Shown: piece by piece, positions 7,761-19,471 of the stretch | Layout of the letters: every line of letters starts with the position of its first letter | How positions within the stretch are numbered: position 1 is the first letter of the stretch | Origin: Synechococcus sp. AG-679-C18 | GTDB taxonomy: Bacteria; Cyanobacteriota; Cyanobacteriia; PCC-6307; Cyanobiaceae | Reading direction: 5' to 3' | DNA: 64,000 nt | NCBI GenBank assembly: GCA_003210755.1 | Contig: QCUL01000013.1 | Location: forward strand, 196-64,195 | Translations under genes and position numbers: made by a program | Notes under the pieces: model-generated | Databases searched by the model: none | Told to the model about the DNA's origin: nothing | Seen by the model: the letters and a program-made list of their open reading frames with translations, nothing else

Positions 7761-7833
7761 AGCCGATGACCTGACTTGAACAGGCGACCCACGCTTTACG
7801 AAAGCGTTGCTCTACCAGCTGAGCTACATCGGC
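7761..7833 (-). tRNA. tRNA-Thr (anticodon CGU)
   Basis: The minus strand reads GCCGATG TA GCTC AGCTGGTA GAGC A ACGCT TTCGTAA AGCGT GGGTC GCCTG TTCAAGT CAGGT CATCGGC T. This gives a full cloverleaf of 73 nt with anticodon loop TT-CGT-AA. Confidence 0.9.
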
Positions 7834-8132: not shown

Positions 8133-8879
8133 ATCTGTTGCTTCCGTTGAGTTCAAAGGTTCTTCTTCATTCCTGGCAACAACTTCTTGCTCTACACGAT
8201 CTTCTTTTGACTTGTCAGAGGTTTGCTCAGGACTACTTGTGTCAATAGTTTTATTGTCTACATCTAATGTTTGAAGTTTGAACTTGGGAGCATCCCATTC
8301 AAGATTTCTCAGCCGAAGAAGACTAAAGCCGAGTGAAAGCCTTGATTGTTCAAGTTCTAAATCACTCATTATTGAAGCCTCATCGATAGCTTTTGACGGA
8401 CGAGTAAGGAGCCAGATTGTTTGGACCAACTGATGCCATTGCCAAAAAATCACTGCCAGTATCGGTGTTGAGATCAGCAGACTTTTCAGTCGATGCCCAC
8501 CCGATAAGGGAGAAAGTTCCGAAACAAGCAAGGAGGAACGGTCGATCCACCAGAACAAACCAAGCAGTAGAACGGCCCCTGAAGCACCCACCAGCTTTAT
8601 GAACAAGTTGTCCTGGAGGCGGCTTATTTTTCGTTGCCAGAGGTTGCGTTCTGCTATCCGCTGACGAACTAGTAAAAGTGAACCCCAGTCAACCGGTTTT
8701 TTCCAAAACAGGACCGCCGGTGCAATAACGGCTATTCCCCAGCACAGGAGACGTTCAATAGGGGGCACCGGACCAAGATCAGAGCTCGCCAAAATCAATC
8801 GAAGCAGCTGTAGCTCCAGTGGAATGGCTCCAATTGCCACCAACTGGAGCCAGAGAAGCGGCTCGCTTCTAGAGGACAT
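7938..8879 (-). CDS. membrane protein with acidic low-complexity C-terminal tail
   Basis: 313 aa. Four or five N-terminal TM segments, then a Ser/Thr/Glu/Asp/Pro-rich tail. Its ATG overlaps the infB stop (TGATG), so it is probably the last gene of the rimP-nusA-infB operon. Confidence 0.65.
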   Translation of the reverse strand: MSSRSEPLLWLQLVAIGAIPLELQLLRLILASSDLGPVPPIERLLCWGIAVIAPAVLFWKKPVDWGSLLLVRQRIAERNLWQRKISRLQDNLFIKLVGASGAVLLLGLFWWIDRSSLLVSELSPLSGGHRLKSLLISTPILAVIFWQWHQLVQTIWLLTRPSKAIDEASIMSDLELEQSRLSLGFSLLRLRNLEWDAPKFKLQTLDVDNKTIDTSSPEQTSDKSKEDRVEQEVVARNEEEPLNSTEATDSVFSGSIQPKQTTEEDNSTDLNHEITENNIISSSDPQGHDEQPKATGSEESKPDQTPESTPGSA

Positions 8880-11800
8880 CAGGTGGCTAGCTTGCGGCGC
8901 TGGGTCACAAGTTTGTAGCCCTCAACAATGTCCCCATCCTTCCAATTGGCAAAGCGATCACAGCCGATTCCGCATTCGAATCCTGTGGCCACATCTTTAA
9001 CATCGTCTTTGTTTCTGCGTAGAGAATCGAGATCTCCAGCAAAGACAATTTCATTGCCACGACGGACGCGTACCTTGCAGTTCCGCTGAAGTTTCCCAGT
9101 TGTGATGTAACAACCCGCTACAGCGCTCTTACCAATCGTGAAGACAGCCCGGACTTCAGCTTCACCAAGAGACTCCTCAACAAGTTCTGGTTCAAGAAGA
9201 CCCTCCATCGCTAATTGAATGTCCTCCAGCAACTTGTAGATCACGTCGTAATCGCGAACGTCAACGCTGTTTGCATCTGCAGCTCGTTTCGCACCTGAAG
9301 CCATCGAAGTGTTAAATCCCACGATCACGGCTCCAGATGCCGCCGCTAAATCGACATCGGTTTCCGTGACTTCGCCAGGAGCAGAAAGCAAGACACGCAC
9401 CTGAACCTCGTCCTTCGGGAGCTGTTCAAGAGAGCCAAGGATTGCCTCCACACTGCCTTGAACATCGGCCTTGAGAATGAGATTGAGCTCTTTGAGTTCT
9501 CCCTCTTTTGCTTGGCCAGACATGGCCGTGAGAGACACTCGCCGTGAGGCCATTTGTTGAGCCAGACGACTGGCACGGGCATCTGAGGCGCGATCGCCTA
9601 CAACAGCGCGTGCTGACTTCTCATCGGGATAGACCTCAAACTCGTCGCCTGCAGTGGGCACTTCGCTGAAACCAAGTGCTTCCACAGCACAGGAAGGACC
9701 GGCTTCTTTCAAACGGCCGCCGCCGTCGTCCACCATGGCGCGCACTTTTCCAAGAACCGGTCCTGCGGCAAGCACGTCACCAGTGCGGAGCGTGCCGTTC
9801 TGAACCAGCAATGTGGCTACAGGGCCTTTGGCCTTGTCGAGATGGGCCTCGATCACGGTGCCTTTTGCGAGTCGATCGGGGTTGGCTTGTAAATCCTCTA
9901 CCTCGGTCACGAGAAGGATCATTTCAAGCAACTTGTCGATGTTTTCTCCGCGGAGGGCACTGACGGGCACCATCACCACATCGCCTCCCCAATCTTCCGC
10001 CAGCAGGTTCTGTTCAGAGAGTTCCTGTTTGACGCGATCGGGGGAGGCTCCCTCTTTGTCGATCTTGTTGATCGCCACAACAACCGGCACTTCTGCCGCT
10101 CGTGCGTGGCTGATCGCTTCCAAAGTCTGCGGCCGCACACCATCATCTGCCGCAACCACAAGGACAGCAACGTCGGTGACCTTCGTTCCTCGAGCACGCA
10201 TGGCGGTGAAAGCCTCGTGTCCTGGGGTGTCCAGGAAGGTGAGCCTCTGAGGGGAATCGTTGTGCTGAATCTCGACTTGATAGGCACCAATGTGTTGGGT
10301 GATTCCACCGGCTTCTCCAGCGGCGACGCGCGCTTTGCGGATCGCATCGAGAAGGCTCGTCTTGCCATGGTCCACATGACCCATGACAGTGACCACGGGA
10401 GGACGGCGAATGAGATGAGCGCGGTCTTTCTCTTCGATCATCTCGACGGTCTTCTTGGCCGCCTCTTCGACATCGTCCTGAAGTACAGGTACGCCGAATT
10501 CTTGGGCCACAGCTTCAATAGTTGGCATGTCCAAGGTCTGCGTGACCGTGGCGATGACACCTTTGAAGAACAAAGATTTGATGATCTCAGAGCTTTCGAT
10601 GCTGAGCATGTCAGCGAGCTCTTGCACCGTGAGATTGTCTTCTGGGACCACGATCATCTCGGGACGTACCTGTTTGGCCTCCCTTGCTGCACGAAGTTCC
10701 ATTGCGCGCCGCCGCTGACGCTGACGTGCGGTTTCCTTACGCCGCTTCCTGATCGCAGCAACTGGCTTGGGAGCTGGCTTGTGCTTGGTTCTCGGCTTGG
10801 AAGGACGCGCCAGGCTGGCGGACAGAACCATGGCCTGCTGTTCACCAGCGAAGCCTCCTGTCTCAGCGGTGAGGGCATCATCGTTTTCGCCAATAATGTG
10901 GACTTTTTGGCGCTGTTTTTGCGGTGATTTGCTGCGCAGAGCTTCCAGCTTCGCGCTGTCATCCCAGTCAGGTCGTCCAGGCCTTCGCTGTCCACCAGCT
11001 CCAGGGCCAGGTCGGAAGCCTGGTCTCCTTGGGGCTGATGGCGGGGTGGCTGTAGGCCTAGAAACAGGGGGAGTTGCTTTGGCTCCTCCAGGTGCTGCTT
11101 CACCGCTACGGGCTGCAACGGGTGAGCCGTCAACGCGCCTCGGCGGCGGCGCAGAAGGACGGTTATTTGGCTTTTGGAGCTGCATAAGCTCACCAGGAGC
11201 CACCGGCTTGCGCATCCCTGGCATGCCACCAGGACGGGGGGGCTCCTGGTCTTGGCGCGCCTGATGAACGTCCTGGTCCATCTCCACGACCACTGCTGTC
11301 CCCATCTCTGCGGATGGGCTTACCAACCAGTTCGAGGCCCCCAGCGCCTGAGCGAGGTTGGCCTGGTTTTGTAGGTGCGCTACCAGGCCTAATAGGAGCT
11401 CCTGGGCGCTGAGCTCCTGCTGGTCGTTGCGGCATATTGGCGCGCTGTCCAGGAGGACCACTTGGCCGAGGACTCACACCTGGGCGCTGACCGATTTGAC
11501 GTACGGGAGCCCCAGGCGCGGGACGTTTGGGCTGGGGCCGACCAACGAGCTCTGGTTTCGGTGCTGGTCGTTGGGGCGCCCCGCGGTTGACGGGGGCTTT
11601 GGGTTGAGGACGAGAAGGTGGAGAGGACGGTCGCCCACTGCTGGAATCTCCCGATCGCTTGATAGGAGAGGTCCCTGTGGGCCGCACGGGAACAGGAGTC
11701 GGTCTCGCAGAAGTCGGACGTTGAGGCGCAGAAGGAGCCGAGGCAGCCGGGGGGTGAATCGAGGGTTTTGGGGCCGAAGGCGCGGGAGCTGCCGTTGGTT

Positions 11801-12239
11801 TTGGCCGTGGTGAAGGCGCAGAAGTTGTAGGAGCGCTTTGACGGTTGACAGGCTTCTGTGGTGCCGGTTGGCGTGAAACAGGTTTCTGTATTACCGGGGG
11901 CTGGGGAGCCTCTGGTCGCGAAGGCGCAGAAGGTTTTGGACTCGGTTTAACTGCCGTTTGACCTACGGGTTTACTGGGCATGGACGGAGCTGATGGGCTG
12001 GATGCTTTTTGGACCGAGAGGATCGCTTTGCCTGCTGCGGGCTTTAGGGGAGCAGATGCCGTTGGCTTGCCACCTTGGCTCAGAAGACTTCGGATTTTTC
12101 CCGCTTCTGATTCACTAATGGAACTGCTGTGGCTTCTGGCCGAGATGGACAGCTTCTCGGCGGCATCCAGGACATCTTTGTTCTCCAAGCCAAGGTCCTT
12201 GGACAACTCATAAATTCTGACTTTGCCGCTGCTGGTCAT
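8879..12239 (-). CDS. infB: translation initiation factor IF-2, reading frame interrupted (one extra nucleotide)
   Basis: ORF 11190..12239 starts [30 protein letters not shown] (IF2 N-domain) and continues Pro/Gly/Arg-rich. ORF 8879..11461 carries [19 protein letters not shown]..., the [13 protein letters not shown]-domain and the C-terminal domains. The total span of 3361 nt is 3n+1. Confidence 0.9.
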
Positions 12240-12583: not shown

Positions 12584-14055
12584 CGGGCCTCTTCCTCGTC
12601 CAGGGTTGTGTTGGTATCAACGTTTGAAACATCTTCAGCAACGGGTTGTTCGTCTTGCTGTTGAGGTTCGCCGTCTGTTTGTTCTATTGACTCAGCAAGC
12701 TGATCCTGGCCTGCTGCTTCGGTCTCGTCGTAATACTCACCATCTTCTGAATATCCCTCCTCGTCTTCGGGAAGGGGATAAAGCTCACGCAGTCGGGCAT
12801 CTTCTTCGGCTCTTGCAGTTTGTTCAATTGCAAGCCGTTCTTCAGCTTCTCGCTGAAGAGCTTCTTCCTCTTCTCTCTGTGAGATCAGTTCTGCGACGAC
12901 AGCATCTTCAGCCGTTTGGTCATATTCAGTGGAATTTTTGATGTCGATCTTCCAGCCAGTCAATCGAGCGGCAAGGCGCACGTTTTGCCCCTCTCGGCCG
13001 ATGGCAAGGCTGAGTTGATCTGGAGGCACGAGAACATGTGCATGCTGCCCCTCTGGATCAACAAGTCGCACAACTTCAACGCGAGCAGGACTTAGAGAAT
13101 TGGCGATGTATTGGCTGGGGTCATGAGACCAGCGAATGACGTCAATCTTTTCACCGCGAAGTTCATTCACCACCTGTTGAATACGAGAGCCACGTGCTCC
13201 GATACAGGCTCCAACTGGGTCGACCTCTCTCTCGATGCTGTCGACAGCCACTTTGGTGCGGGGACCTACTGATCGGGAGGGTGGATTCGCCTCGCGGGCG
13301 ACTGCAACGATGCGCACCGAGCCCTCCTGAATCTCGGGGACTTCATTTTCGAAGAGATAAACCACAAGACCTGCATTGGCTCGACTAACGAACAGCTGAG
13401 GTCCACGACGCGGGACCTCGCTGACCTCTTTGAGAAACACCTTGAAGGTGGCATTGGCTCGATAGTTGTCGTTAGGAAGTTGGTCGCGCCTGGGCAATTC
13501 AGCCTCTACTTCAGGACGCCCCAGTCCTGAACTCACCGCCATGATGATTGACTGACGCTCGAACCGAATCACTCTTGCTGTGAGGACTGGGTCCTCGAGG
13601 TCTGCAAACTCTTCCTGAATCATCCGCCTCTGTTGATCTCGAAGCTTTTGAGCCAGTACTTGCTTGGTAGTGGCGGCTGCCATGCGTCCGAAATCTTCTT
13701 TTTCGGGAGTGACATCCAAGACGACAGTGTCACCAGCCTGGGCGTCATCGGCCACTTGCATCACCTCAGACAAGGCGATCTGATGATCTTCACTTTCGAC
13801 TTCGTCAACAATGATTTTGCTGGCGAGAACCCTGTAACCCTCTTCGTCTAGATCGAGACCGACATCAAAATTACTGAAATATTCTTCGTCAAAAGGATCT
13901 TCACTGATCCCTAAATAAAGAGTGCGTCGATAGCGTTCATAGCCTTTTAAAAGGGCTTCGCGTAATGCCGCCTCAACAACCTGAGGGGGAAGCTTTTTTT
14001 CCTCGCTGATGTCTTCGATCAGGTTGCTGAGGCCGGGGAGAAGGACGAGAGCCAT
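12580..14055 (-). CDS. nusA: transcription termination/antitermination factor NusA
   Basis: 491 aa. N-terminal domain, S1 and two KH regions (ACIGARGSRIQ, AIGREGQNVRLA), and an acidic C-terminal tail. Confidence 0.95.
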   Translation of the reverse strand: MALVLLPGLSNLIEDISEEKKLPPQVVEAALREALLKGYERYRRTLYLGISEDPFDEEYFSNFDVGLDLDEEGYRVLASKIIVDEVESEDHQIALSEVMQVADDAQAGDTVVLDVTPEKEDFGRMAAATTKQVLAQKLRDQQRRMIQEEFADLEDPVLTARVIRFERQSIIMAVSSGLGRPEVEAELPRRDQLPNDNYRANATFKVFLKEVSEVPRRGPQLFVSRANAGLVVYLFENEVPEIQEGSVRIVAVAREANPPSRSVGPRTKVAVDSIEREVDPVGACIGARGSRIQQVVNELRGEKIDVIRWSHDPSQYIANSLSPARVEVVRLVDPEGQHAHVLVPPDQLSLAIGREGQNVRLAARLTGWKIDIKNSTEYDQTAEDAVVAELISQREEEEALQREAEERLAIEQTARAEEDARLRELYPLPEDEEGYSEDGEYYDETEAAGQDQLAESIEQTDGEPQQQDEQPVAEDVSNVDTNTTLDEEEAR

Positions 14056-14109
14056 CGTTGACGGAAGGGAAAGTCTGGGAAAAAAGTGAAGTTGGGGTGC
14101 GGCTCGAAA

Positions 14110-14577
14110 TCAGCCTGTGGGGTTGGTGAGCTCGACAGAAATAATGGAGTTTCGTGAGATGCGCTTGATTCGCCCGTGAATGCTGATCTGCACGTGGTCT
14201 TCTGTTCGTTCCAATAAAGTTCCGGAGTGTTTCTGCTCGATGCCTGCGCCATCACGGTGGATCACATCAACCGGGTAACGACGAAAAGTCTGGAAATCGC
14301 GATCCGAATGGAGATGTTCTCCGATTCCTGGACTACTGATCTCCAAAACATATGGGTCGGAGAGAACCCCAGCATCCTCAAGGGCTTGACCCATTGGTGA
14401 GCTGAAGCCGGCGCAATCATCCAACGTCACATCGTGTCCGTTGGAATGTCTGATCTGGATCTGCACCGTCATGGGTTGCATGTGGGCTAGGACCTGCAAA
14501 TCAGCCAAATGAAAGCCGTGGTCTGCAGCTGTGGCAGAAGCCAATTCCTTTAAATCAGGGAGCAGAGGGTGGGGCAA
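14110..14577 (-). CDS. rimP: ribosome maturation factor RimP
   Basis: ORF 14110..14652. ...PHPLLPDLKELA...EISSPGIGE... The likely start is TTG at 14577 (M-PHPLLPDL, as I recall for picocyanobacterial RimP). The maximal ORF starts at 14652. Confidence 0.85.
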   Translation of the reverse strand: MPHPLLPDLKELASATAADHGFHLADLQVLAHMQPMTVQIQIRHSNGHDVTLDDCAGFSSPMGQALEDAGVLSDPYVLEISSPGIGEHLHSDRDFQTFRRYPVDVIHRDGAGIEQKHSGTLLERTEDHVQISIHGRIKRISRNSIISVELTNPTG

Positions 14578-14690
14578 TGGCAATCTGAGAGGGTGTCGGG
14601 TGTAGGCCCGATGGTTGATGCTGCGATCACCCTCCCGGAGAGAGGAACTCACCAGGCCTTTTTCAATGTAGTTGATTGCCCCTCTCCGGT

Positions 14691-15197
14691 TCAGTTGCAG
14701 CCCTGCACCGAAATGCGGTAACTGAATCCCGTCGCTCCAGGATCGTTGCTGGCACCAACCTTGAAGTTCACCTGGCTGACGGCTTTTTCTGAAGGTGATT
14801 GAAATGGTCCGAACTGCGCTCCGGTGCCTGTTGGAGGCTTCATTAATTCGTTAACAACTCTGAGGTTGCTGCCGTCAGTGAATTTCAAAAAGGCTTCGAT
14901 TGGATAAGCACCTGGCTGACTGTCAGAAGAGTCTGCTGTGAAGAACAGTTTGTAGGAGGCAAAAGGTTGGTTCACTACAAAGTCGGTGTTCCAGTTGCTT
15001 CGGCCAATCAATTTCGTACGTTGAACCCTCTTCTTGACGATGTAAGGCTTAGGGCCGTCGCCATTGCCGCCGATCGGCGTAAGGAACTTGCAACTTGCTT
15101 GAGCTGCTGATGTTTGAGTCAAAATCAGCGTTGAACAAGCTGCTAAGACACCGATAATTGAAACTGACCTGCGGGCCTTGTATGTAAGTGAAAACAT
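14691..15197 (-). CDS. secreted protein of unknown function, last gene of the Gly-rich-repeat/rSAM cassette
   Basis: 168 aa. N-terminal signal peptide (IIGVLAACSTLILTQTSAAQA). The mature part has exactly two Cys, near the mature N terminus (SCKF) and at the C terminus (QGCN). Composition is beta-rich. Starts 17 nt after the rSAM stop. Confidence 0.6.
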   Translation of the reverse strand: MFSLTYKARRSVSIIGVLAACSTLILTQTSAAQASCKFLTPIGGNGDGPKPYIVKKRVQRTKLIGRSNWNTDFVVNQPFASYKLFFTADSSDSQPGAYPIEAFLKFTDGSNLRVVNELMKPPTGTGAQFGPFQSPSEKAVSQVNFKVGASNDPGATGFSYRISVQGCN

Positions 15198-15214
15198 GGT
15201 TGTTGTTGAAGTGA

Positions 15215-16366
15215 TCAGGGTGCTTTCACCCCGTTGGCCTCAATTTGTTCAAGAAGTACGTTGACCGGGATTTGGGTCGAGAAGCGACAGGCGCAGGTCT
15301 CGCTAGCGGCAAGTGTTCCATGTTCCCAATACTTGTTGCTTCCGTTGCCTCCGCCACAGAAGCCGTAATAGTCACATTGTTCACGACACAGCGTTGTGCC
15401 ATGGCTCATGTCTTTAAGCAATCGATGAAAAGTATCACTTTGCGTGGCTTCAACGAGAGTGTGATCACGGATATTCCCTAAATTAAACAATCCATATTTT
15501 TTAGTTTCGACGGATAGTAATTCTGGATCAAAGGTTGAAAAATTACCCGCTGAGTCAACACTTAGAATGGAATAGGGTCGATTCATCTCATTTTGAAGCA
15601 GCCTTTGCCCGCCTGCGATCATCTCCATTACTTGATCAAATTCACGCAATCGAATTGGGAATCCATCTTTTTGATTGTAGTTCCAGAAGGATTTTAAGAA
15701 GTTGTGGTATTGCTTTTCTCGGTCTAGACCTTGCATAGAAGATTGAGAATTGACGCCTTCCTGTTCTTCAACATTGAAGCCGAGATCGTGAATTCCGTTA
15801 TCACGAAAAAAGGTGTACATCCGCTTTGGGTCATCCAATGCAGAGCTTGTTAAAACTGCGATGGCATGGACAGGAATGTTGTGCTTTTGGAGTTTGCGAA
15901 TGCCGCGCATGGTCAGCGCATAGGAGCCTTTTCCATTGCGGAAGCGTCGATGGGAATCATGAATGCTTTCCGGGCCATCAATGCTGACTCCCACCACGAT
16001 GCGATTGCGTTTAAAGCATTCACACCATTGGTCATTGATCAACGTGGCATTGGTCTGAACATGTTGCTCAATCTGCACGCCTTGATTTTGTAGTTCAGAG
16101 GTTTGCTCAGCCAGGATGGTGCTGGCCTCGTCGTAGAAACTGCAGGGCAAGGTCAAGGGTTCGCCTGCGTGCCAGAGAATGGAGAGTTGAGGTCCCCAAA
16201 AAGGACTTTCGTAGATTCTTTCGACCAGGATGGGCAGCTGGTTGAGATCAAAAACGCGCCGTTTCTGGCGATCAGGCAAATAGCAATAACTGCAATCGAG
16301 ATTGCACAGAGAGGTTGCCTGAATCACTAGTAGGCCAATAGGGCCATAGTCAGCGTGGTTCACCAA
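15215..16366 (-). CDS. radical SAM/SPASM-domain peptide maturase (GRRM-system / three-residue-cyclophane-type candidate)
   Basis: 383 aa. CNLDCSYCY (CX3CX2C) at residues 21-29. Cys-rich C-terminal region CREQCDYYGFCGGG...ETCACRF. The GTG start overlaps the precursor stop (TGGTGA). Confidence 0.85.
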   Translation of the reverse strand: MVNHADYGPIGLLVIQATSLCNLDCSYCYLPDRQKRRVFDLNQLPILVERIYESPFWGPQLSILWHAGEPLTLPCSFYDEASTILAEQTSELQNQGVQIEQHVQTNATLINDQWCECFKRNRIVVGVSIDGPESIHDSHRRFRNGKGSYALTMRGIRKLQKHNIPVHAIAVLTSSALDDPKRMYTFFRDNGIHDLGFNVEEQEGVNSQSSMQGLDREKQYHNFLKSFWNYNQKDGFPIRLREFDQVMEMIAGGQRLLQNEMNRPYSILSVDSAGNFSTFDPELLSVETKKYGLFNLGNIRDHTLVEATQSDTFHRLLKDMSHGTTLCREQCDYYGFCGGGNGSNKYWEHGTLAASETCACRFSTQIPVNVLLEQIEANGVKAP

Positions 16367-16674
16367 TTAGCGAAGCCTCTGTTGTAACCATTCGCGAAAC
16401 CGCGTCCGCCACCGTTTGCAAAGCCACGGGCTCGCCCTCCACCGTTACCCCAAGCGCGGCCACCACCATTGCCCCAGGCTCTTGCGATGAGATCGGGATT
16501 GTTGGGACGACTTTGTTCGAGCGCAGTCCAGGCATCCGTTGAAAGGTTATCGATGCGTTGCTCGAGTGCATTTCCAGGGTCGGGCTGGCTCAGAACCGCA
16601 GATTGAGATGCATTGGTGAGGACTGAACTTGAGGCGAGAATGGCAGCGATGCTGAGCAGAGTTGTTTTGTTCAT
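16360..16674 (-). CDS. Gly-rich repeat RiPP precursor peptide with N-terminal signal-like sequence
   Basis: Internal Met of ORF 16360..16818: MNKTTLLSIAAILASSSVLTNASQ...ARAWGNGGGRAWGNGGGRARGFANGGGRGFANGYNRGFANW (104 aa). Immediately upstream of, and overlapping, the rSAM/SPASM gene. Confidence 0.8.
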   Translation of the reverse strand: MNKTTLLSIAAILASSSVLTNASQSAVLSQPDPGNALEQRIDNLSTDAWTALEQSRPNNPDLIARAWGNGGGRAWGNGGGRARGFANGGGRGFANGYNRGFANW

Positions 16675-16711
16675 GGATGAAGTGAATGTCAGTAGATAGG
16701 AGAAATAAGAA

Positions 16712-17629
16712 TCAGGAATTCTTAGACAATTCAGCGGTGGTTCCAAGAACGATGGAGAAGAAGCCGCTGATGATTTCATCGCTGAGGTCAACATCGCTTC
16801 CAGGTCCAATCCATGCATTAACCGCTGTCCGAACCTCCTGATTGCCGTCCACGTATTCGGTCAGCATGCGGCCGATGGCCAAGTTGCTGTAATTCAGTAG
16901 GTGAGGGGTGGTGTTCGCGACGATGCAACCCAAGCCTGATCTGGCATAAGGGAAAGCGGGAACGAGATCTGAATCGGGTGCTGCGTCTTTAAGACTGGCC
17001 TTGAGCCAGAGAGTGTCACCACCAAGAAATTCAACGGTTCCGTCTTGAAGTCTTTCCAGAGCTTCTGCAGGGGTATTGAAGAACTGGAACTGGGCATCAT
17101 CAAGAGATTTCGCCAGAACGGCAGCCGCCGCACTGTCTTTGATGACACCGATCGTTTTGCCCTTGAGGCTGTCTGGAGTGCCGTCATTACCTTTGGGAGC
17201 CAAAACGCGCACACCGCTTGTCGCGAAGGGCAAGGTGTAGGTGAGTGTTCGTTGTCTCTCCCAACTGAAGGCAACGCCACAGGCAATATCTGCTTCTCCG
17301 GAACGAATCTTGTTGAGTCCATCCTGTGCTGACTGGACGGGAATGGGCTGAATGACGATGTCATCAGCTTTGTTTTCAGGAGCAGCTTTGAGGTGGTCCC
17401 GGATGGTGTCAAGAACCACAAAAGAGAGGCCGTCGTATTTGCCGTCGGTCTCGTTGACCATGGGAAGGGTTTGGCCAAGCACGACAGCTCTGAGCTTGCC
17501 GGATTCAAAGACGTTGCCGGTCTGAGCTGAGGAGGCCTTGTCCTCAGTTGGAACAGACTTCTGGCAGGCCACAAGCCCAGCAGAAGAGAGCGCGATCAGG
17601 CCAGTGGCGGCGGCTTGGAGCAAGCGCAT
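16712..17629 (-). CDS. family-3 extracellular solute-binding lipoprotein (amino-acid-type SBP), orphan
   Basis: 305 aa. Lipobox LVAC at residues 18-21. Periplasmic binding protein type 2 pattern (...DIACGVAFSWERQ...GVIKDSAAA...). No adjacent permease or ATPase genes. Confidence 0.8.
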   Translation of the reverse strand: MRLLQAAATGLIALSSAGLVACQKSVPTEDKASSAQTGNVFESGKLRAVVLGQTLPMVNETDGKYDGLSFVVLDTIRDHLKAAPENKADDIVIQPIPVQSAQDGLNKIRSGEADIACGVAFSWERQRTLTYTLPFATSGVRVLAPKGNDGTPDSLKGKTIGVIKDSAAAAVLAKSLDDAQFQFFNTPAEALERLQDGTVEFLGGDTLWLKASLKDAAPDSDLVPAFPYARSGLGCIVANTTPHLLNYSNLAIGRMLTEYVDGNQEVRTAVNAWIGPGSDVDLSDEIISGFFSIVLGTTAELSKNS

Positions 17630-17769
17630 GATCGTGATTTATTTCATGGTCTGAATGTATTAATAGTCACCGTTTTGATTTTGATACCAACCGATGCCTG
17701 AAATGCGCACGATTGGGATCAATGACCTAAGTACCACTGGGCTTTGGAGCTCAAAGGAGGTGATTGCTT

Positions 17770-17785
17770 CCTGGCGATCGCCAGG
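17770..17785. repeat. perfect 16-nt palindrome CCTGGCGATCGCCAGG centred on a HIP1 (GCGATCGC) core
   Basis: Read directly in the 700-bp ORF-free spacer between the SBP gene and the htrA-like gene. Confidence 0.5.
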
Positions 17786-18322
17786 TCTCTTGATGACTTA
17801 AAAGATGTTGGTTAACCAAGAATTTTTTAGTGAACATATTTAGGCGCTAATCAGATTCGTGACCGCTGTGACTTCAAGTATCTCTACGACTGAAAGTCAT
17901 CTTGTCGCCGGTATCTGTAACTTCTTTTCGGCAAGAGGCAGGAGGGTTTAGTGGTCCTAGGAGGTTGATCGATTTTGTGATGTGCTCCCCTCTGAAGCAA
18001 GTTTCAAAAACAGTGTGACCTCCTGCTACTAATCGATGCGATGGTAAGCACCGCAAAAGTGGAGCTTGGAATTGGATGCGCTGGATCCTCTTTGCAATCT
18101 TTTTGAGTAATGGAAATGATTGCTAGCAATGAAGACTGATTGAGATTTGACCACCTGCGTCTGTGTGGAAGTAACCAATGATGAAAGGACTTTTTGGTTT
18201 AACAAGCGGGCTTGAGAGTTGATTCCAGGAGGAGACCTTTTTATAAGTGAACAAATATATCCTCGATGACTTCCTCTGATTGCTTGAGCAAGGTCACTAG
18301 CGTGTCAGAACAAATGCTTTGA

Positions 18323-19471
<1,149 letters not shown>

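Follow-up and report, generated by a model that had tools for sequence, protein, structure and literature searches.

A predicted GrrA/OscA1-family triceptide precursor with a Sec-type signal in a grrP-grrA-grrM module of Synechococcus sp. AG-679-C18

We analyzed a 64,000-nucleotide stretch of DNA from Synechococcus sp. AG-679-C18 (contig QCUL01000013.1, positions 196 to 64,195; hereafter the window, in whose numbering all coordinates are given) and consider it very probable that the open reading frame (ORF) at 16360..16674 on the minus strand is grrA, the gene for a triceptide precursor of the GrrA/OscA1 family of peptides that are synthesized on ribosomes and modified after translation (RiPPs), that it belongs to a canonical GRRM module, grrP-grrA-grrM, and that its product would be cross-linked by the radical S-adenosylmethionine (rSAM) enzyme GrrM and then exported through Sec. 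The GRRM trio found here adds one more ordinary case to a system that has been described and curated before, and is not new; all three of its genes can be named by standard annotation, and as a discovery the locus carries little weight. The interest that is left lies in how the same substrate serves both a radical SAM enzyme of the cytoplasm and the Sec pathway, and in what the modified peptide and GrrP do in marine Synechococcus, a phototroph that abounds worldwide, questions that concern the whole family and not this locus in particular.

The family models make the assignment clear. The grrA product matches the NCBIfam model TIGR04260, "GrrA/OscA1 family cyclophane-containing rSAM-modified RiPP", over residues 1-103 of its 104 at 88.7 bits (cutoff 31, E 4.1e-25), while the downstream neighbor at 15215..16363 is identified as GrrM/OscB by TIGR04261 (591.4 bits, cutoff 310) and the upstream neighbor at 16712..17629 as the "extracellular substrate binding-like orphan protein GrrP" by TIGR04262 (366.8 bits, cutoff 190). 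These curated models reportedly date back to an in-silico description of the GRRM system. A first-pass annotation of this DNA had proposed a precursor for an rSAM enzyme that forms three-residue cyclophanes, and the three scores above cutoff, together with the reported chemistry of the GrrM homologue OscB, bear that proposal out; both the identity of GrrA and its expected cross-link chemistry thus follow from family membership and from published work on OscB. In a Pfam scan neither GrrA nor GrrP found a match, and of the trio only GrrM was matched, by the Radical_SAM domain (PF04055, E 1.3e-15). Literature searches on GrrA/GrrM, GRRM and signal peptides in triceptides returned no relevant match. 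The genes of the trio and the parts of the precursor are laid out as follows.

16712..17629, minus strand: grrP, first gene of the trio, encoding a predicted orphan periplasmic substrate-binding-like lipoprotein (TIGR04262).
16360..16674, minus strand: grrA, encoding a 104-residue precursor peptide of the GrrA/OscA1 family (TIGR04260), stop codon included.
16600..16674, minus strand: predicted Sec signal peptide, residues 1-25 (MNKTTLLSIAAILASSSVLTNASQS), called by rule from its conserved layout, with predicted cleavage at SQS↓AVLSQPD.
16552..16599, minus strand: conserved post-signal block, residues 26-41 (AVLSQPDPGNALEQRI), consensus AVHxxPDxxNxLEQRI, a putative recognition leader for GrrM.
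16486..16551, minus strand: variable acidic/polar linker, residues 42-63, in which only A48 and W49 are conserved and I63 moderately so.
16363..16485, minus strand: core, a 41-residue Gly/Arg repeat with predicted Trp/Phe-to-Asn-Cβ cyclophane sites (WGN twice, FAN three times) and the end GFANW-COOH.
16360..16363, minus strand: GTGA overlap, in which the grrM GTG start shares the last base of the Trp104 codon and the first two bases of TGA.
15215..16363, minus strand: grrM, encoding a predicted cyclophane-forming radical SAM/SPASM maturase of 382 residues, with its GTG start at 16363 (TIGR04261).

The grrA ORF begins with an ATG at 16674 and ends with a TGA stop at 16360-16362, giving the 104-residue product MNKTTLLSIAAILASSSVLTNASQ...GFANW; a renewed check of ORF and translation agreed with the original description of a signal-like N terminus followed by a Gly/Arg tail. 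An in-frame ATG further upstream, at 16818, was considered as an alternative start and rejected, as it sits within the grrP coding region and as 20 of 22 related loci have nothing equivalent, lacking any upstream in-frame ATG before the stop; across these 22 loci an in-frame stop often lies only 1-16 codons 5' of the MNKT start. The possibility raised at first pass, that translation starts at 16818 and leaves the hydrophobic segment internal, therefore does not hold, and because this ATG is not used the hydrophobic segment of GrrA is N-terminal.

The last 41 residues of GrrA (ARAWGNGGGRAWGNGGGRARGFANGGGRGFANGYNRGFANW; 15 Gly, 7 Ala, 6 Arg, 6 Asn, 3 Trp, 3 Phe and 1 Tyr) hold two WGN, three FAN and one YNR triplet, and the whole 104-residue peptide is free of Cys, a tally in which our direct count and the first-pass annotation coincide. 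Five [WF]-x-N motifs are far more than this composition would yield, the mean in shuffled 41-mers being 0.86 and the probability of five or more being 7.5e-5 (200,000 shuffles). Tandem Repeats Finder detected no tandem repeat in the grrA repeat DNA and the periodicity is therefore held at the peptide level; on the same null result, a DNA-level tandem repeat and an origin by slippage were rejected. The motifs are also what the family preserves. Among 109 full-length GrrA homologues, on which all counts of precursor conservation are based, the dominant aromatic triplets of the core are WGN (261 occurrences), FAN (252) and FGN (37), the number of [WF]-x-N motifs per peptide ranges from 3 to 7 with a mode of five (82/109), and the C terminus is GFANW in 101 sequences, so that the conservation of aromatic-x-Asn spacing for which an alignment had been suggested is indeed present. 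The same alignment does not sustain the earlier count of six candidate triplets: at the Tyr position the homologues have YRG or YRA 91 times and YNR only 4 times, and YNR, not being conserved, is probably not a sixth cross-link site.

The expected chemistry comes from OscB (IPR026357), which when co-expressed with its precursor makes three-residue cyclophanes linking residues i and i+2, joining Trp C7 to the Cβ of Asn or Asp and Phe C4 to the Cβ of Asn (PMC11002830, a review that credits this chemistry to Nguyen et al. 2020). The WGN and FAN triplets of GrrA are motifs that fit the OscB chemistry so reported. Later work on OscB, to judge from the titles of the papers, describes an enzyme that accepts diverse Gly-rich precursors and a cyclization that depends on the leader.

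At its other end GrrA has the organization of a secreted protein. Lys3 is followed by a 16-residue uncharged hydrophobic stretch (T4-L19), whose mean Kyte-Doolittle value reaches 2.15 in an 11-residue window, and then by a polar stretch leading to the predicted site, with Ser at both -3 and -1 before A26. In a rule-based test GrrA showed the layout expected of a Sec signal for signal peptidase I: a positively charged n-region, a hydrophobic h-region in the range of about 10-18 residues, and small side chains at -3 and -1. The layout is shared by the homologues, in which the -3 and -1 positions were read relative to the conserved (A/S)V with which the post-signal block begins: the -3 residue is Ser, Ala or Thr in 108/109 and the -1 residue Ala or Ser in all 109, the uncharged run spans 12-18 residues (median 17), and in 105 the first six residues carry a net charge of +1 or +2. 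Textbook sites of the AxA↓A type (AQA↓A, AEA↓A, AMA↓S, for example) occur in distant homologues. This rule-based evidence points to a Sec signal that is predicted to be cleaved by signal peptidase I, and the conserved n/h/c layout and -3/-1 motif strengthen the original suggestion of a cleavable Sec-type N terminus. Two other targeting routes were rejected. Residues 1-25 contain no RR, which speaks against Tat, and lipoprotein targeting does not suit a peptide that has no Cys; those homologues that do contain VLC have Leu at -1, which is unfit for a lipobox.

A second conserved element follows directly on the predicted cleavage site. Across 102 unique leaders, profiled column by column, P31 and E38 never vary and V27, N35, L37 and R40 each reach 0.97 or more, and mean pairwise identities calculated from 19 genomes divide the precursor in this way:

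Residues 1-25, signal-like region: 0.75.
Residues 26-41, block AVxxxPDxxNxLEQRI: 0.79.
Residues 42-62, variable linker: 0.37.
Residues 63-104, core: 0.81.

GrrA is, by its sequence, a peptide of three constrained blocks interrupted by a variable linker, and residues 26-41 are the likely recognition leader for GrrM. The first-pass annotation had left room for the hydrophobic segment itself to serve as recognition leader, which becomes less likely given that a separate conserved block comes after the predicted cleavage site. This block and the predicted cleavage site offer concrete handles for experiment.

GrrM has the features expected of the enzyme that would act on this precursor. Its radical SAM motif, CX3CX2C, is formed by Cys20, Cys24 and Cys27 (CNLDCSYC), starts at residue 20 of a protein that has no signal peptide, and is invariant in all 13 sequences compared, as are the cysteines at 116, 326, 330, 336, 357 and 359. 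The five C-terminal ones (326, 330, 336, 357 and 359) are enough for one auxiliary cluster. Among proteins of solved structure it is closest to anSME, an anaerobic sulfatase-maturating enzyme (4K37, E 1.5e-25), and to ChlB, a triceptide synthase (9GM3, E 4.8e-19); over residues ~255-275 and 326-359 of GrrM the alignments place no Cys where anSME has its auxiliary cluster I ligands, and likewise for ChlB. GrrM probably holds a single auxiliary cluster. The family is named for SPASM, yet on this pattern of cysteines its members may bind only one.

The junction of the two genes is equally constant. The sequence TGGTGA, with its 4-nt overlap of grrA and grrM, recurs unchanged in all 12 of the related loci examined, which suggests translational coupling of the two genes. 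A TTG at 16366 was considered as the start of grrM and set aside in favor of the conserved GTG at 16363, as it is not conserved itself and most loci have AACTGG there.

Beyond the pair, GrrM was used to scan genomes, and all 24 loci so recovered keep the order grrP-grrA-grrM over whatever part of it their contigs include. All of these are labelled Synechococcus bar one, which is probably a mis-binned metagenome-assembled genome (MAG); the closest is 89% identical, and strain WH7803 is included. They indicate a marine Synechococcus as the source of the window. In 17 of the 24 rimP comes directly 3' of the trio and nusA follows if the contig is long enough, and in the other 7 neither gene is beside it. 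Because these 7 loci keep grrP-grrA-grrM together away from rimP-nusA, the trio is a unit. No exporter or protease is conserved with it across the 24 loci. A protein search with GrrA returned 178 homologues, of which those named by organism are almost all from Synechococcus or related picocyanobacteria; many are already called GrrA/OscA1 or "rSAM-associated Gly-rich repeat (secreted) protein", and the closest named relatives are ~74-81% identical. Two records fall outside these organisms. A grrP-grrA-grrM trio of Synechococcus type is present in the MAG of the genome scan, which is labelled Salipiger bermudensis (contig CAXQPR010000132.1), and the GrrA of the window shares 81% identity with a protein labelled Propionibacteriaceae; binning contamination, and not horizontal transfer, is the most likely explanation for both.

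The third protein of the trio, GrrP, has a conserved lipobox, LVAC or LVGC, seen both in the window and across 13 related loci. Its best sequence match in the PDB is to the periplasmic Venus-flytrap domains of BvgS and not to a transport binding protein, and a receptor-like role would fit this better than a role in transport.

Taken together, these observations are best explained by the following mechanism. grrA and grrM would be co-translated from one mRNA, the overlap being observed and the coupling predicted from it, and cytoplasmic GrrM would recognize the unfolded pre-peptide, probably through the AVxxxPDxxNxLEQRI block. By analogy with OscB, GrrM would abstract the Cβ hydrogen of Asn in each WGN and FAN and join the Cβ to Trp C7 or Phe C4, respectively, giving a product with five three-residue cyclophanes and a total mass change of about -10 Da. 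Residues 1-25 would then serve as a Sec signal and, as the conserved sequence features indicate, signal peptidase I would cut after Ser25 (SQS↓AV), releasing a peptide of ~79 residues into the periplasm. Sec and signal peptidase would in this way stand in for the dedicated protease and ATP-binding cassette (ABC) exporter of typical RiPP clusters, and GrrP may be the periplasmic partner or receptor of the modified peptide, which is the speculative end of the scheme. Modification by GrrM in the cytoplasm followed by Sec export is the most likely order by analogy with related enzymes, the export step being predicted. We infer, then, the order of modification and export, the cleavage site, the role of residues 26-41 and the partnership with GrrP.

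The analogy is with the anSMEs, which modify signal-peptide-bearing sulfatases in the cytoplasm before export. These cytoplasmic enzymes take a Cβ hydrogen from a substrate with a signal peptide, whose export follows later, and as they are relatives of GrrM, the action of a cytoplasmic Fe-S enzyme on a Sec substrate has precedent. The anSME/AtsB proteins (PDB 4K36-4K39) are rSAM/SPASM enzymes and the closest relatives of GrrM with solved structures. They differ in that anSME oxidizes Cys or Ser to formylglycine whereas GrrM would instead form a C-C bond, in that GrrM has no Cys aligned to the anSME auxiliary cluster I ligands, and in the score of GrrM against the anSME model TIGR03942, which at 167 bits is far under the cutoff of 349. 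The other three-residue cyclophane-forming enzymes (XncB/XyeB, MscB/FxsB, YhhB, AmcB and ChlB (9GM3)) have the same fold as GrrM and the same logic of linking an aromatic ring at i to the Cβ at i+2, but act on different precursors and motifs, are not described with a Sec-type signal and an orphan binding protein, and are separate families by their curated cutoffs, GrrM matching AmcB (292 bits), YhhB (155), FxsB (112) and XyeB (67) only below them. With the GRRM system, of which OscA/OscB is the characterized triceptide example, the window shares the family models, the gene order, the Gly-rich WGN/FAN precursor and the predicted rSAM/SPASM-type maturase, and nothing essential differs. What sets the GrrA of the window, like its marine Synechococcus clade, apart from most homologues is detail: SAVLSQPD in the leader where others have AAVH, and GYNRGFANW in the tail in place of GYRGGFANW.

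Several points weigh against the proposed route. Modification, export and cleavage of GrrA are predicted here from the sequence and from a homologue, the signal-peptide call rests on rule-based features, and the interaction of GrrP with the peptide is a conjecture from the co-occurrence of the two. Moreover, the signal region, at a pairwise identity of 0.75, varies about as little as the core does, a possible sign of a second role. In the same genomes, the GrrP signal peptide is similarly conserved (0.70), and such conservation is thus not diagnostic of a second role in GrrA. The fullest version of the proposal, in which the Sec signal is real, this RiPP pathway, abundant among picocyanobacteria, would do without a protease and exporter of its own, and a peptide stapled in its C-terminal tail by a cytoplasmic Fe-S enzyme, then exported and trimmed to ~79 residues by the general Sec and signal peptidase machinery, would serve in the periplasm as ligand of the BvgS-like orphan lipoprotein GrrP, is one that we put forward tentatively, as a possibility with somewhat less than even prospects.

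The conservation of the signal region could also be taken to mean that the hydrophobic N terminus is part of a leader bound by GrrM and no secretion signal at all, in which case the product would stay in the cytoplasm or leave by some other route. In the profile of 102 leaders a conservation of 0.9 or higher is reached by each of the h-region residues L6, L7, A10, A11, L13, A14, S16, V18 and L19; drift in generic signal peptides is often greater, and classical RiPP leaders are cytoplasmic. Yet the n/h/c layout with small -3/-1 residues recurs in 108 of the 109 homologues, the distant AxA↓A ones included, and the hydrophilic block at 26-41 is separately conserved and free for recognition. The control signal peptide of GrrP is just as conserved, the co-inherited GrrP is itself a predicted periplasmic lipoprotein, and no exporter or protease is conserved with the trio; we regard a leader without secretory function as improbable. 

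No better prospects attach to an uncleaved signal-anchor, which would tether the modified peptide to the cytoplasmic membrane with its Gly-rich tail in the periplasm. Cleavage of GrrA is a prediction, and the SQS↓A site in the window is weaker than a classical AxA; against this, the uncharged stretch, at 12-18 residues (median 17), is short for a membrane-spanning helix, and the small residues at -3/-1 are conserved and keep a constant spacing from it. That GrrA is an unmodified secreted Gly/Arg-rich protein whose rSAM neighbor acts elsewhere is hardly credible: modification at this locus is a prediction from a homologue, but the gene order is invariant, grrA and grrM keep their stop/start overlap, conservation is strict for the aromatic-x-Asn triplets and not just for the Gly/Arg composition, and the homologous OscB has been shown to modify such precursors (PMC11002830).

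Two further genes in the vicinity of the trio were considered as components. Downstream of grrM the window contains a 168-residue ORF without a family (14691..15197, minus strand), followed by rimP, nusA, ylxR and infB. This ORF has a signal-peptide-like N terminus (...TSAAQA↓S) and a Cys near both ends of its predicted mature part and finds no match in Pfam or NCBIfam; as it belongs to no family and is present in only 5 of the 24 loci (L001-L003, L015 and L021, the last being WH7803), it was rejected as a fourth component of the system and looks like an accessory insertion. On the other side, an HtrA/DegP-like protease gene at 18329..19471 on the plus strand was considered as the gene for the leader protease and found no support, being detected beside the trio in only 6 of the 24 loci.

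Between grrP and this divergent HtrA/DegP-like gene lies a gap of ~700 nt (17630..18328) without a convincing ORF, in which conservation with related loci is confined to the ends next to the genes; an Rfam scan of the gap gave no family at the gathering threshold. Scans for consensus promoters and terminators over 14000..18400 gave fewer matches than shuffled sequence and nothing that defines an operon. RNA-gene detection over the 64-kb window gave a single gene, for tRNA-Thr (CGT), at 7761..7833 on the minus strand. Lastly, infB, which encodes IF2 (8879..12239, minus strand), is split over two frames, with one ORF (11190..12239) holding the Pro-rich N-terminal part and another (8879..11461) the remainder, from about residue 76, while in five related Synechococcus loci both parts are in one frame. 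In a DNA alignment a run of seven C on the minus strand at 11236..11242 has one C more than the corresponding run in two of the related loci (L001 and L002), and the split is probably a homopolymer error of sequencing or assembly in an essential gene, a real frameshift being less likely.

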